A DNA stretch of 64,000 nt from Candidatus Aegiribacteria sp. MLS_C (GTDB lineage: Bacteria > Fermentibacterota > Fermentibacteria > Fermentibacterales > JCC-6): positions 10,780 through 74,779 of the forward strand of contig LQBI01000007.1 of assembly GCA_002030045.1 (NCBI GenBank), read 5' to 3'. Shown piece after piece: positions 24,030 to 36,601 of this stretch. Position numbers and translations under genes: made by a program. The number at the start of each line of letters is the position of its first letter. The first letter of the stretch is position 1. The notes beneath the pieces are model-generated. The model was not told the origin of the DNA. It did no database searches and saw only the letters and a program-made list of their open reading frames with translations.

Positions 24030-24698
24030 ATGAGGACAGTGTTTCTTCTGCTGGCCGCTCTGGCCGTTCCCGGTGTTCAGACGGAGGGAACAGCCTCGTC
24101 GGAGGAATGGTTCCCGATGACCTTCGAGGAGTCTCTGGAAGGGGTCAGCGAGGACTGCCCCGGGTGGATAACGGACAACCAGGTACTTATGGACGTGGCA
24201 TTCGTGGGATTCGACGGGGAAGTGCACTTCGGACAGCTTGTCGTGGATGCCCGGGTCGTGGTCGATCTGCAGCTGGTGTTCACTCAGATGCTGCTTACTG
24301 GATTCCCCCTTGAGTCGGTGGTCCCGATATGCGAGTACGGCTGGGACGACGGTCTATCCATGGCAGACAACAACACATCGGGCTTCAACTACAGGACCGT
24401 GGCCGGCACCGACAGACTTTCCCGCCACGCCTACGGCCTGGCCATAGACATAAACCCGGTACAGAACCCGTACTGCACCGGCGACAGGATATCTCCGGCC
24501 GGGGCGGTCCACGATCCTTCCGTTTCCGGTACGCTCTATGCCGGGCATCCCGTGGTGCTGCTCTTCAAGGAGCTGGGATGGAGATGGGGAGGGGACTGGA
24601 CCGAGAAGGACTACCAGCATTTCGACCTGCAGATCAAGCCGATGGCTCTGGAAGGCGTTGAACACCGCCGTTGCTGGCCTCCATGGAGGGTATTATGA
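24030..24698 (+). CDS. M15 family metallopeptidase (cell-wall carboxypeptidase-like)
   Basis: FNYR, SRHAYGLAIDINP, WGGDW and DYQHF; signal peptide. Confidence 0.87.
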   Translation: MRTVFLLLAALAVPGVQTEGTASSEEWFPMTFEESLEGVSEDCPGWITDNQVLMDVAFVGFDGEVHFGQLVVDARVVVDLQLVFTQMLLTGFPLESVVPICEYGWDDGLSMADNNTSGFNYRTVAGTDRLSRHAYGLAIDINPVQNPYCTGDRISPAGAVHDPSVSGTLYAGHPVVLLFKELGWRWGGDWTEKDYQHFDLQIKPMALEGVEHRRCWPPWRVL

Positions 24699-26110
24699 AG
24701 ATCATCGCAGCTTTGCCCTTTTTTCTCCTTGTATATTCCGCACCTGCCCTTGCAGTGAACGGTGACGGTCTCGAGGCTCGAGTGGAACTCTGCTACGCTA
24801 CCTCGGTGAACATGCCGGAGACGGAGTTCGGTCCCGAGAACGTGTTCGACGGGGACACCGCCACCTGCTGGGCCACCATGCCCGGGGCAGCTCCGGACGA
24901 AGGGCTTTTCTTCTCCTTCGTCGAGCCGAAAACGATCAGCACCATAATGGTGGACCTGGTTCCGGCGGGGGACGGTTACGAGGGGATAGAGACATACCAG
25001 ATCTACGTCAACGGCCTGGAGGGCGGAACCTACTCGGGAAGCGACGCTCCCGTCTGGATCAGTACTCGTGTGAAATCGTTGTTCATCAGGATAAACACGA
25101 CGGATTCCATGCAATTGGACGTCGATGGGATCCGGTATACCGGGGACCTGCCTGTGGGCATAAGGGAGGTCACAATGACGGTGGAGGTATCAGAAGCGGG
25201 AGATCTCGCCCCTTTGAGGATCGTCCCCATCGGCAGAGCGGCGGGAAGCGTAAGGGCCAGTTCGAGCCTCGAGCCCGAGGAGGCCTACTCGCCGGATTTC
25301 CTTTTCGATTCACGTCCGGCCTTCGGCTGGGCCGACGGCAATGAAGAGGATACCGGGGAGGGGGAGAACCTGGTCTTCACACTGGACGAGCCCGTGAGAA
25401 TAGAGCAGCTGAGGATATGGAACGGCTACCAGAGGTCCGAGACGCATTTCCTGCACAACGAGAGGGCCTCCCGTATCTCCTTCGGGACCTGCCTGGAGAA
25501 TCCCGGAGTGTACCGGCTGGAGGATTCGATGGAGCCCCAGGTGGTGACCCTTGACCATCCTCTCGAGGGCGACTGCTTCGAGCTGGACTTTCTGGATGTC
25601 TATTCAGGCGAAGTCTACCGGGACCTGGTCATCAGCGAGTTCCGTTTCTTCGACGGCGAGAACTGGTTCATACTCGATACCGGGACCAGCGAGGAGCGCA
25701 AGTTCGCCATACTGGAATGGGCCGAAGGCGCCGAGTTCGGGAGGATTCTGGACCGGCAGCTCTACCTCGGCGCCATGGAGAACGGCGACAGCTGGGAACC
25801 CCATGCACAGACACTGGTGCTGCGTTCCAACGGGAGTTTCATAGTCTGGATGGAGGACTACTGGGTCGACGGCGAGGAACACATGTACGCCGACGGCAAC
25901 TGGCAGGTCATCGACGGCAGCACGGTCCGCATCTTCGGCCGTCTGCAGAGGGTATCCAGGACCGGTATGGAACCCTACGACCCCTACGCCGGTTCCTGGC
26001 CCGACCAGGGACAGGATACGCAGCGTCTCACCGTCTTCAGCGACACGCTCCGCATGAGCGGGAACACGGTCTCCAGCGACAGGGGCCTCTTCCAGGACTT
26101 CAGTTTCTAG
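24695..26110 (+). CDS. Secreted protein with two discoidin-like glycan-binding domains
   Basis: Repeated motif: PENVFDGDTATCWA and PDFLFDSRPAFGWA; also IWNGYQRS and ISEFRF. Confidence 0.65.
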   Translation: MKIIAALPFFLLVYSAPALAVNGDGLEARVELCYATSVNMPETEFGPENVFDGDTATCWATMPGAAPDEGLFFSFVEPKTISTIMVDLVPAGDGYEGIETYQIYVNGLEGGTYSGSDAPVWISTRVKSLFIRINTTDSMQLDVDGIRYTGDLPVGIREVTMTVEVSEAGDLAPLRIVPIGRAAGSVRASSSLEPEEAYSPDFLFDSRPAFGWADGNEEDTGEGENLVFTLDEPVRIEQLRIWNGYQRSETHFLHNERASRISFGTCLENPGVYRLEDSMEPQVVTLDHPLEGDCFELDFLDVYSGEVYRDLVISEFRFFDGENWFILDTGTSEERKFAILEWAEGAEFGRILDRQLYLGAMENGDSWEPHAQTLVLRSNGSFIVWMEDYWVDGEEHMYADGNWQVIDGSTVRIFGRLQRVSRTGMEPYDPYAGSWPDQGQDTQRLTVFSDTLRMSGNTVSSDRGLFQDFSF

Positions 26111-32684: not shown

Positions 32685-32971
32685 GTCCCTTCAGTCTATC
32701 TTTTGGGAGGACCGGTTATCCTCCCGCCCATTTCCTGCGGGGATTTACGGAAGGACAATATACCCTGTTCCGCGGTCCGTCAAAACTGTTCCCCCTGGCA
32801 TCATCAGCTTCCGACTCCGAACTTGCCCCAGGCTTACAGTGATCCCGCTGTGTTTCGTAAAGTGTAACCGGTTCGCATGCCATTGACTGGGAGTTTCCAG
32901 AAACACATTGACCGGGAGTCTCCGTCAGCCTAGATTCATTTCATCTTTTCAAACATGAATAGGGGGGTTGA

Positions 32972-33985
32972 ATGAAACTGCTCGTATTTTTCCTTCTGGC
33001 CGCGTCAGTCGCGGTCTGTACCGCCGATCCCGTGGTCGACCGGACGCTTGACGCACCTGCCGGCGATATCACCGGCCTCGGGTTAGGAGGCGGCTACCTC
33101 CGGGCCCTGGACAGGACCTCGGAGACCGTTTACAGGATGGACCCGGTCACCGGAGCCGTGAGCCTTTCATGGGCGGTGACCCAGACCGGGACTAGGATAC
33201 CCACGGGACTTACATTCCTGAACGACTGCGTGTTCGTTGCGGCCGGCACTGCCACCGGTACCGCCGCCTGCGCCTACAGATACTCGTCCTCCGGTAGTTA
33301 CGTAAGCTGCTTCTCGCAGGACTGTTGAGGCAGCGGCCCGGACCAGGAGGTTTCTGGTCTTGCCACCAACGGTACATACCTTTACGGGGCCGGCATCGAC
33401 TCCTATACCATGAACGAGACCGTGGAGAGGTACAGCTACACAGGCTCGCAGCAGGCTGGTCCGAACCTCTTCCAGCCCGTAGGGCTCCCGGTCTTCTTCG
33501 ACATCTGATACATGCAGGATGACATCCGGTTCGACTGCAACGACGCGGATTCTCCGGTTAAGGCCTTCAACACCGGCGGTGCTCTCACCGACTGCATCCG
33601 GAACACGGTCATACCTGCGGCCCGCGGTCTCGCTTTCGAGAGCGACCAGTTCATGCGGGTGAGCAACATGTACGAAGACAGGATATACAGGATTAACCTG
33701 AATCCAACCGGTACAGCCGAAGGCGGCTGCGGGACCTCGGTATCGCTCTGCAGCGACATCAACCCCTTCAGTTCCGTGGTGACCGTAACCGGGACCGGTC
33801 TTACACCCGATGCGTTCCTGGAGGTCTACGACATGGCCGGCAGGGCGGTCATCAGCGCGCCCTTCTGCGGTTCCTTCACCTGGGCAGCGACTTCGAGTGC
33901 AGGTAAACCCGTTCCGGCTGGAGCCTACATTGCCGTCGTCAGGGACGGAGAAAGCTTCGAAAGCCTGAGAATAGTCAGGCTCTGA
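32972..33985 (+). CDS. Secreted beta-propeller with C-terminal sorting domain, interrupted by two in-frame TGA codons (candidate selenoprotein; this copy may be decaying)
   Basis: ORFs 32972-33328 and 33512-33985 are in the same frame; the only stops are TGA 33326 and TGA 33506; signal peptide at the N-terminus and INPF..YDMAGR..GAY tail at the C-terminus. Confidence 0.6.
33329..33364 (+). promoter_or_regulatory. Candidate bacterial SECIS element
   Basis: GGACCAGGA-GGT-TTCTGGTCT stem begins 11 nt after the TGA; outer GGCA/TGCC pairing. Confidence 0.6.
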
Positions 33986-34090: not shown

Positions 34091-34189
34091 CCTATGTCAA
34101 AGTATTGATTACAATGGTATTAGGTATGCGGTTCCCTACTGCTGTCCTGGCGAATAACCATCACCGGTTCAATGAGAGAAGGTCGTTCC

Positions 34190-36601
34190 ATGAAGAGGCT
34201 GTCTTTCCTGGCCATGTTATTCCTGCTGCCCGCGGCTGTACTGGCGGGCAGCATGACGGTGAACATTCCCTTCGATCCCTCCGAGGTCTCGGTCTCGGAA
34301 AGGGGACCCGTCACATCCGTGGTGCATCCCATGGGATACGTCACGTACACGCCTGGGCTGCCCTGCCTTCCGTTCCTTCCGGTAAGGGTAGCCCTTCCCA
34401 CCGGATGCAGGGCCACCGGAATCACCGTCCTCGAGGAGAGCTACTCCACACTGGACGGTACCAGGTACGTGGCACCCTCGTCCGGCTGCTTCCCTCTCTC
34501 CAGGCCCGATCTTGCAGTCCCCGCGGAAGCCGATCCTCACGTGTACAGCCGGGACGGTTTCTTTCCCGAACGGCCGGTGATGATAAACGGTTCCAGTGTT
34601 CTCTGGGGAATACCGATAGCCTACATGACCGTATTTCCCGCCAGGTGGAACCCGGTGAGCGGCGAGCTGGAACTGCTTGACCACCTGCTGATCGAGGTGG
34701 AGTACGAGGAGGACCAGTCGGTCCGGCTGGTGCAGAGACGAACCGGGACCAGCGAGGAAAGGGCCATGGAGATGGTCCGCGGGATCGTCGTGAACCCATC
34801 CGACGTGTCCCCCTCCGGCGCCGTAATCGTCGAACCCAGGGAACTGGAGTACGGCCAGTACGTGATAGTGACCCATCCGGACTACGAAGCCGCCTTGGAC
34901 GACCTGGCCGCCTGGAAGACCTCCAAGGGAATACCGGCCAGGATCTACACCACGACCTGGGTGGAGCAGAACTATTCCTTCTGGGATCTTCCCCAGGACA
35001 TTAGGGCCTTCCTCACCGACTGCCGTGACGAGGGCGCAGACTACGTACTCATAGTTGGCGATGACGACATGGTCGCCTGCAGGGACGCCCGGATCGCCAC
35101 CTTCGGGTACCTGGAGGACGCCCCGTCCGACCTCTACTTCTCCGACATCAACGACACCGCTCCCGGCGCTGACCTGTGGGACACCAACTACAACCACATC
35201 TGGGGGGAACCCGCCGACAGCATAGACTACCATCCCGACCTCTGGGTGGGCAGGGCCAGCGTGAACTCGGTTTCGGAAGCCGAACTCTGGGTACAGAAGG
35301 CACTGTTCTACGAGCACATGACTAGCTGGCCGGGAATGACCGACTACTTCGACACGGCTCCGGTGGAGATGCGTATCGGCCACAGCACCCAGCTGCTATT
35401 CTCGCCCCCGTACTACGGCGCGGTGAGCGCCGAGATCATCTCCGGCTACGTACCGCCGGAGTGGGAGATTGAGAAGTGCTACGAGATGACGGGCAACAAC
35501 AGCCACGCCATAACCGATGCTATGTTCAACGCGGGGCCCCACCACGCCTATGTGGCTGCCCATGGAAGCCAGACCAGCTTCTCGGTACCGGGGGGCAGCT
35601 ATACCACAGGCGACGTCATGGGTTTGACCAACATCTCCGACCAGGGCAGCGTGGCCATAATAAGCGCTATATGCTGTCTCACCGGGCACCTTGACGGCTC
35701 AGAGTGCTTCACCGACGCCTGGCAGGCCAGTCCCCAGGGCGGAGGCTTCGCCATGATGAACGCCCGGGAAGGCTGGGGTCACTACGGCGATCCGGGAATG
35801 GGTCCCAGCGAGAGGATCTGCGAGAAGTTCTACTACAGGTACCTCATCGAGGGCTACTACGAGCTGGGAATGGCCCACCTGACCGCCAAGGACTACTTCA
35901 CACCGCCCTCCGCCTTCGTTGACAGTTTCGACCTCGACGGCAACGAGGAGGAAACCCTGGACTGGTGCCTGAAGGTCTACAACCTCTTCGGCGACCCGGA
36001 GCTGCCCATGTGGACTCTGGAGTCCATGGACCTGTCCGTAAGCCATCCTGCGGGCATCAACCAGGCAGGCGTGGTACATGTGGAGGTTACCAGCGGTGGC
36101 GGTCCCCTTCAGGACGCCAGGGTGTGTCTTCAGAAGGGCGACTGGCAGACCGGGGACATATACGAGGTTGCTTACACCGACGGTTCCGGCGCTGCCGACA
36201 TATACGTGAACCCGGCTTCGACCGGCACCATGGACATCCACGTGTGGGCCCACAACCACGACACCTATTCCGGAGCCATCGCGGTAACCGGGGTAGGGGT
36301 GGAAGAGGCACCGATACCGGTCTGGAGCAACGGACTTGACCCGATAGCTCCCAGCCCCGCAGCAGGCAGCGCCCTGGTCCGCTTCAGCCTTGCCGCTCCC
36401 GGACATGCCAGGGTGGACGTGTTCGACATCTCCGGAAGGATAGTGGCGACCCTCGCCTCGGAAGAGCTTGCTGCTGGAGCCCACAGTCTGGTATGGAACC
36501 TGGAGGACGGTTCAGGCAGGCCGGTACCGGCAGGTCTCTACCGTATCAGGCTGTCCTCGGGCTCCTTCGTGGAAAGTGCCGGAATGGTGGTTATCAGGTA
36601 G
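34190..36601 (+). CDS. Second C25 (gingipain-like) cysteine peptidase with FlgD-Ig/T9SS-like C-terminal domain
   Basis: WKTSKG, PSDLYF, VGRASV, AAHGS, AICCLTG and YNLFGDPEL; FDISGR..GLYRIRL tail. Confidence 0.88.
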   Translation: MKRLSFLAMLFLLPAAVLAGSMTVNIPFDPSEVSVSERGPVTSVVHPMGYVTYTPGLPCLPFLPVRVALPTGCRATGITVLEESYSTLDGTRYVAPSSGCFPLSRPDLAVPAEADPHVYSRDGFFPERPVMINGSSVLWGIPIAYMTVFPARWNPVSGELELLDHLLIEVEYEEDQSVRLVQRRTGTSEERAMEMVRGIVVNPSDVSPSGAVIVEPRELEYGQYVIVTHPDYEAALDDLAAWKTSKGIPARIYTTTWVEQNYSFWDLPQDIRAFLTDCRDEGADYVLIVGDDDMVACRDARIATFGYLEDAPSDLYFSDINDTAPGADLWDTNYNHIWGEPADSIDYHPDLWVGRASVNSVSEAELWVQKALFYEHMTSWPGMTDYFDTAPVEMRIGHSTQLLFSPPYYGAVSAEIISGYVPPEWEIEKCYEMTGNNSHAITDAMFNAGPHHAYVAAHGSQTSFSVPGGSYTTGDVMGLTNISDQGSVAIISAICCLTGHLDGSECFTDAWQASPQGGGFAMMNAREGWGHYGDPGMGPSERICEKFYYRYLIEGYYELGMAHLTAKDYFTPPSAFVDSFDLDGNEEETLDWCLKVYNLFGDPELPMWTLESMDLSVSHPAGINQAGVVHVEVTSGGGPLQDARVCLQKGDWQTGDIYEVAYTDGSGAADIYVNPASTGTMDIHVWAHNHDTYSGAIAVTGVGVEEAPIPVWSNGLDPIAPSPAAGSALVRFSLAAPGHARVDVFDISGRIVATLASEELAAGAHSLVWNLEDGSGRPVPAGLYRIRLSSGSFVESAGMVVIR

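Follow-up and report, generated by a model that had tools for sequence, protein, structure and literature searches.

A predicted exported beta-propeller protein family of Fermentibacterota with a probable Cys-selenocysteine site, and a member that appears to be decaying

A selenocysteine (Sec) directly preceded by cysteine is familiar from the GCUG end of mammalian thioredoxin reductase. The adjacent Cys-Sec selenoproteins with which we compare here are KCU-star/DUF466, SaoC, SaoL, HgcA and MbdU, and the exported ones are the TonB-dependent receptor of the FCYXU type (NF049945), the MtrB/PioB-like GSU2204 and the DsbA/DsbG-like proteins, all as named in Table 1 of a catalogue from 2026 that covers 119 families of prokaryotic selenoproteins (PMC13188914). 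According to the available parts of that catalogue and of the deep-Sep paper, most catalogued bacterial selenoproteins are thioredoxin-like and almost all have homologues with Cys in place of Sec. Here we describe a gene at 32972-33985 of a 64,000-nucleotide stretch of the Candidatus Aegiribacteria sp. MLS_C genome (contig LQBI01000007.1, positions 10,780 to 74,779; hereafter the window), which very probably belongs to a new family of exported selenoproteins, absent from the catalogues compared, with recoding of a known kind. We hold it on balance probable that the complete statement is right, namely that the family consists of exported propeller selenoproteins with a Cys-Sec pair, that the first in-frame UGA of the gene specifies Sec, and that the copy in the window is decaying.

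The reading frame opens with the ATG at 32972 and stays the same to the final TGA. A reading of this DNA from its letters alone (the sequence-only reading) had noted that a first open reading frame of 118 aa ends in ...FSQDC at a TGA and that the frame remains open to 33985, and both observations are borne out: the TGA is codon 119, and beyond it the unchanged frame reads GSGPDQEVSGLATNGTYLY. The second in-frame TGA inside the gene, of which that reading had warned, is likewise present, as codon 179. We conclude from the comparative evidence below that codon 119 is very probably a Sec codon with a working selenocysteine insertion sequence (SECIS), a proposal of the sequence-only reading that now gains support from a conserved TGA, a covarying hairpin and the presence of the Sec machinery. 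The UGA would be decoded by SelB and tRNA-Sec, which would be guided by a GGU-loop hairpin starting 11 nt downstream of it. The features of the gene are as follows (T9SS, type IX secretion system; pLDDT, predicted local distance difference test).

32961..32967, + strand: Shine-Dalgarno-like AGGGGGG, spaced 4 nt from the ATG, read from the sequence
32972..33028, + strand: predicted signal peptide MKLLVFFLLAASVAVCTAD, identified by eye and with an approximate boundary; a helix is modelled at residues 3-11 with low pLDDT
33029..33706, + strand: predicted five-bladed beta-propeller with NHL/DUF6923-like repeats, residues ~20-245, from AlphaFold2, Foldseek and profile matches
33101..33103, + strand: CGG (Arg44) at the position of a conserved Trp, one of four such changes
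33323..33328, + strand: Cys118 (TGT) and TGA codon 119, the latter read as Sec on the conservation of the site
33340..33360, + strand: SECIS-like hairpin with a 9-bp stem and a GGU apical loop 20 nt after the UGA, from covariation, synonymous constraint and energy
33506..33508, + strand: TGA at codon 179, the second in frame and probably a premature stop; Gly or Ala in orthologues, without a SECIS
33743..33982, + strand: predicted beta-sandwich at the C-terminus, resembling T9SS type A sorting / FlgD-Ig domains, residues ~258-337, from TIGR04183 and modelled strands
33983..33985, + strand: terminating TGA, from the sequence, with no SECIS-like hairpin following

We read 63 homologues at residue level (sets of 33, 12 and 18), from 14 genera and 25-67% identical to the window protein. 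Every one of them has a TGA in one and the same loop (33/33, 12/12 and 18/18), and none has Trp, Gly or Arg at this codon. A Cys stands directly before the TGA (C-U-G-S) or three residues before it (C-G-G-U-G-N, C-S-G-U-G-G) in all 63, and Cys118 and Gly120 are invariant in alignment A3. Two paralogues in the host genome itself share 37% and 33% identity with the window protein and have one in-frame TGA each; a further paralogue, at 28% identity, has none. Matches were found in 34 of 41 genomes (40 relatives and the host's own), and among the matches listed from them the rows that cover the propeller divide, by hand count, into 103 with the TGA and 5 without. A survey of the phylum gave matches at E <= 1e-20 in all 70 genomes (14 genera, one order), with one to ten matches per genome and a best E of 2e-86 or lower in 66 of them; the remaining four are weak, at 1e-21 to 1e-24. 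The TGA is present in every row among the matches listed from this survey, and 100 further rows lie outside those matches.

An 11-nt spacer (33329-33339) separates the first TGA from the hairpin, which is built as the sequence-only reading had described it, with a 5' arm GGACCAGGA at 33340-33348, the loop GGT at 33349-33351 and a 3' arm TTCTGGTCT at 33352-33360. Two of its nine pairs are G-U. The rules for bacterial SECIS elements, as given in the available part of PMC13188914, ask for a loop of 3-9 nt that has a G within its first two nucleotides, a stem 4-16 bp long, 16-37 nt of spacing and an energy no higher than -7.5 kcal/mol; the window hairpin satisfies all four (3-nt GGU loop, 9-bp stem, 20-nt spacing, -10.6 kcal/mol). 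On the letters of the window alone it would not stand out from chance, but by comparison with relatives it clearly does.

All 33 homologues of the first set have the hairpin, its loop starting 17 or 20 nt after the UGA and reading GGT in 31 and GGC in two. The stem has 7-10 contiguous pairs around a 3-nt loop in 27 of these; in five a stem of 6-7 bp encloses a 7-nt loop with GGU within it, and in one the stem is interrupted. Among the 18 further homologues, 17 pass the hairpin filter, the exception having a 7-nt loop with GGU in its middle and lacking a G at its first two nucleotides. In the loop-anchored alignment A2 (225 cells), 94.7% of the cells are standard pairs, and sliding the 3' partners by 1-3 columns brings this down to 36-53%. 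Double-sided changes (e.g., A-U, U-A, C-G) occur at six of the nine pairs, and the covariation score was reached in 0 of 500 shuffles; the covarying hairpin for which the sequence-only reading had called is thus found, with compensatory changes. The same stretch is constrained at synonymous sites: in the 12 orthologues, codon identity at identical residues over the 11 codons that follow the TGA is 0.768 (474/617), as against 0.512 elsewhere; windows spanning these codons are the top 4 of 329 for synonymous constraint, and there is no variation in the stem codons GAC, GTT and GGT. Genome-wide, 23 of 89,975 TGA triplets are followed at the same distance by a stem of at least 7 bp with a GGT loop, including the three paralogues of the family. 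A covariance model of the family hairpin recovers its three source paralogues, followed at 21.5 bits by the next match; the next two matches have no upstream TGA. Rfam has no match within 33200-33700.

The host genome (2.98 Mb in 35 contigs, 97.65% complete) encodes the full set of Sec genes that we looked for, with selA at 511 bits, selB at 298 bits, selD at 323 bits and tRNA-Sec at 75 bits, all above their cut-offs. Across the order, selA is matched in 32 of 35 genomes, and the three without a match are 61-73% complete. The selD gene of the host (G000:C32:128345-129268) is interrupted by one TGA (...GPCAG-TGA-AGKL...) and is itself a selenoprotein gene; its SECIS, with a 3-nt GGC loop 22 nt after the UGA, is similar to the window hairpin. 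A code in which TGA has become a sense codon can be ruled out, because TGA is the main terminator in the window (60% G+C), where it ends 65 of the 95 stop-to-stop frames of at least 200 codons. Several genes of the family themselves terminate with TGA.

These results also bear on the other ways in which codon 119 could be understood. In every homologue the frame runs on through the TGA, as it would if the codon were passed without Sec, under a code with TGA as Trp or Gly or through near-cognate read-through, which a downstream hairpin can stimulate. Such read-through is extremely improbable in our view: it has to contend with the use of TGA as the commonest terminator of the window and at the ends of family genes, with complete Sec machinery, with a hairpin that has the loop, spacing and stem of a bacterial SECIS and resembles the selD element of the host, and with an invariant adjacent Cys typical of Sec redox sites. 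It is hardly credible at all that there is no recoding, the TGA being a true stop and the pieces on either side of it separate small genes or dead remnants. Public gene calls do contain just the pieces. However, the frame, TGA and hairpin are kept in 63/63 homologues across the phylum, the pieces downstream have no signal peptide of their own, and the first 118 residues, judging by the structural model, could not close a propeller.

Several points nevertheless weigh against reading the first TGA as Sec. Folding does not set the 48 nt that follow it apart from dinucleotide shuffles (z = -0.36), 65 of 200 of which fold as well. The hairpin register was picked between two offsets by best pairing, a slight bias towards pairing, and kinship of the sequences can inflate shuffle controls. 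A Cys-for-Sec homologue was not seen among the best 150 of 17,227 profile matches, although Cys forms may exist. The sequence-only reading had expected Cys-containing homologues; none turned up, and in the seven full-length TGA-free homologues that we read the site holds no Cys and no Sec, the loop being shorter in most, so that these relatives are without both positions. The missing Cys-for-Sec homologue is unusual for selenoprotein families, for which such homologues are a usual feature, not a necessary one.

The TGA at codon 179 is probably a premature stop rather than a Sec codon. Among 12 orthologues this codon is Gly (GGC or GGT) in eight and Ala in four, and it is Gly in the two closest database fragments, P0005 and P0006 (76% and 62% identical). 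Double selenoproteins do exist, as entries in Table 1 of PMC13188914 attest, and the nucleotides following the second TGA can be folded into a stem-loop, so a protein with Sec at both positions has to be considered. That the codon is never Cys or TGA in these relatives speaks against it, as does the stem-loop itself, which has the apical loop ACUGCAA, whose first two nucleotides include no G, folds with z of -0.24 to -0.33 and is not matched by the covariance model of the family hairpin; no hairpin with a G in those loop positions follows codon 179. We regard a double-Sec protein as very improbable. The sequence-only reading had proposed a single 337-aa chain, which holds as far as read-through of the first TGA goes but probably fails for a full chain from the window copy, where the second TGA falls at a conserved Gly/Ala without a SECIS.

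We think it fairly probable that the window copy is decaying or losing function, on account of the second TGA, four Trp-to-Arg changes and faster divergence. At four positions where the orthologue group has a conserved Trp (33101-33103, 33527-33529, 33599-33601 and 33656-33658), the window copy has CGG for Arg; compared with its sisters L037 and L038, which have the same gene neighbours and a single TGA each, it lies about nine identity points further away from L039-L044. A genome-wide reading of CGG as Trp is ruled out by the neighbouring genes, which keep TGG at 12/12 and 11/12 orthologous Trp positions; for the uniform TGG-to-CGG pattern we have no explanation beyond relaxed constraint. Two intact Sec paralogues would remain in the genome alongside the decaying copy. 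The main rival to decay, which we judge unlikely, is that most cells do not have the second TGA, which at low depth would be an error of the consensus or the allele of a minority strain; the gene would then be intact and encode a 337-aa protein with a single Sec. The depth is about 8-12, and the Logan contigs of two public runs both break at 33415-33444, with a 30-nt overlap and a fall in depth from ~11.9 to 8.5; the break may reflect strain variation inside the gene, just upstream of codon 179. The SECIS and the Cys are intact, as are the signal peptide and the tail, and this is the sole copy with a stop inside the propeller among the homologues read. An artefact is harder to reconcile with the two changes needed to turn GGC or GGT into TGA, with the Trp-to-Arg changes and faster divergence as independent signs of relaxed constraint, and with the contigs of the two runs, which are identical to the letters of the window across 33506 at a depth of ~8. 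For the decay reading itself, the intact state of the SECIS and Cys is an unfavourable observation, as are the nine departures at conserved columns, no more than in some distant, presumably working members, and the circumstance that the assemblies of those two runs may be the window's own source and thus possibly not independent of it. Metagenome contigs scanned with P0005, the closest relative, gave no match, and a scan of genome contigs yielded one locus, L066, which is left out of the comparisons.

The AlphaFold2 model (mean pLDDT 82.4) has 20 strands in five four-stranded blades (residues 21-242), followed by a beta-sandwich at 258-336. Foldseek matched it to propellers, with PorZ best by E-value and glutaminyl cyclases giving the best overlay. 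PF21959 is matched by 16 of 19 family members at E <= 0.01 (best 3e-7), the window copy not being among them, and NHL by 2 of the 19; the family profile matches the designed NHL-type Pizza proteins at E 1e-9. With the window protein, Pfam and NCBIfam gave weak matches confined to the tail. In the model, the Sec loop runs between blades 2 and 3, from the final strand of the former into the innermost (first) strand of the latter, and by usual propeller topology it would lie on the face around the central channel. That both the CU and the CxxU spacing occur at one site is consistent with Cys and Sec functioning as a pair; we infer that they form a selenenylsulfide or bind a soft metal and constitute the working site of the protein.

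In intact members a predicted signal peptide would precede an NHL/DUF6923-like propeller of five blades, with a C-terminal sorting domain of T9SS type behind it, and a protein with such a domain should reach the cell surface or the outside. The sorting domain recognized by the sequence-only reading finds support in the family, in which TIGR04183 is matched by 18 of 19 members at E <= 0.01 (best 4.8e-9) and PF18962 by 10 of 19. The T9SS searches of the host genome were for SprA and PorV; SprA is found at 403 bits summed, against a cut-off of 200. Less favourable to export are the PorV-like matches, which lie below cut-off, and the match of the window copy to TIGR04183, which is weak (E 2.7e-4) and, at 20.8 bits, short of the cut-off of 23. 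Not all members have the tail: in one subfamily without it, the N-termini are lipoprotein-like and the protein stops shortly past the propeller (among L067-L075, L077-L078, P0033 and P0038), and another tail-less variant has a short W..IK..F end motif that is also present in TGA-free relatives. Sec and the hairpin are kept in all subfamilies. In members L049-L054 of family f3, predicted cleavage between ...SA and QTV leaves an N-terminal Gln, a residue reportedly found at this position in T9SS cargo of Porphyromonas.

A bolder proposal, which we offer tentatively and consider rather doubtful, is that this is the first T9SS-delivered selenoprotein, a surface propeller enzyme whose substrates would be compounds of chalcogens or soft metals (polysulfide, selenium species, mercury or arsenic), acted on outside the cell by a Cys-Sec chemistry in which sulfur could not replace Sec, since no Cys form was seen. 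If it were true, a surface Cys-Sec propeller in one to about ten copies per genome of an uncultured phylum would explain why the lineage retains the Sec machinery.

The surroundings of the gene are shared with few relatives. An EIIA/helix-turn-helix gene and a C25 peptidase are neighbours common only to the two closest orthologues, and the 1.5-kb flanks of family genes contain no recurring redox partner. In the window, the next gene downstream (34172-36601) encodes the C25 peptidase, which is gingipain-like and has both a propeptide and a FlgD-Ig tail. The open reading frame at 20213-22456 matches the T9SS sortase PorU weakly, at E 2e-13 and well under the cut-off, and that at 24662-26110 encodes a NADase-type glycan-binding (discoid) domain (NF047619, E 5e-36) unrelated to the selenoprotein. 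A glutaminyl cyclase gene (PF05096, E 1.9e-72; L060:3198-3869, minus strand) lies directly upstream of a gene of the C-G-G-U subfamily, an arrangement found in four related genomes (L058, L060, L061 and L063).

The sequence-only reading had predicted that annotation pipelines would split the gene, and gene callers do break it at the TGA. Public protein sets hold the pieces, as C-terminal fragments of ~190-220 aa and N-terminal fragments ending exactly at ...C, and word-indexed protein searches returned C-terminal fragments of 191-204 aa only; hundreds of database entries of the family are truncated because public gene calls hold fragments only. That reading had also not recognized a described selenoprotein family here, and we found no NCBIfam model, catalogue entry or publication for one. 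The selenoprotein models of NCBIfam release 20.0 are not among the matches of the 19 members. Table 1 of PMC13188914 names no propeller, NHL or T9SS family, and the available text of that paper, of BSepDB and of the deep-Sep paper does not mention propellers, T9SS, NHL or signal peptides. No such family is described in the accessible parts of the literature (including PMC13326102, PMC12013277 and an Omnitrophota preprint), although Table S2 of the deep-Sep paper or BSepDB entries could list it. Homology-based selenoprotein searches that depend on Cys homologues would overlook the family, which is a concrete target for asking what role selenium has outside the bacterial cell; the window locus adds a selenoprotein gene that is apparently in the course of being lost.

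Compared with known propellers, the family resembles the glutaminyl cyclases (PF05096; PDB 3mbr, 2iwa and 3nol) in fold, with a template modelling (TM) score by target of 0.66-0.73 and a root-mean-square deviation (rmsd) of 3.2-4.0 over ~245 columns. The plant and bacterial glutaminyl cyclase fold is also five-bladed. Membership in that family was rejected, as hhalign against a true cyclase gave a probability of 5% and there was no Pfam match; the fold alone is alike, and glutaminyl cyclases, unlike the family, are without Sec. Like the T9SS propeller cargo represented by PorZ (PDB 5m11) and the NHL/SGL clusters of the Atlas, the family would join a predicted signal peptide and a propeller to a type A tail, and its Atlas neighbours have Por_Secre_tail with NHL or SGL; those proteins, however, have neither Sec nor the CU loop, and PorZ, with its two propellers, overlays poorly (TM 0.34 and 0.19, rmsd 17.9).

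With the exported selenoproteins named at the outset, the family would share the departure of a Sec-containing protein from the cytoplasm. Those proteins have other folds and export routes, and none is a T9SS cargo or a propeller, judged by the names and domain identifiers in Table 1 of the catalogue. With the CU-motif selenoproteins it would share a Cys next to Sec (CxxU in a sister group), a UGA decoded through a directly downstream SECIS, and a pair that is probably a selenenylsulfide or a metal-binding site. It differs from them in that no Cys homologue was seen, their NCBIfam models do not match, and the predicted signal peptide and T9SS-type tail accompany a five-bladed propeller rather than a thioredoxin-like, ferredoxin-like or small metal-binding domain. 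The family departs from most catalogued bacterial selenoproteins on both counts, fold and Cys homologues, and it is further set apart by its export signals, its several copies per genome and its match in every one of the 70 genomes of the phylum.

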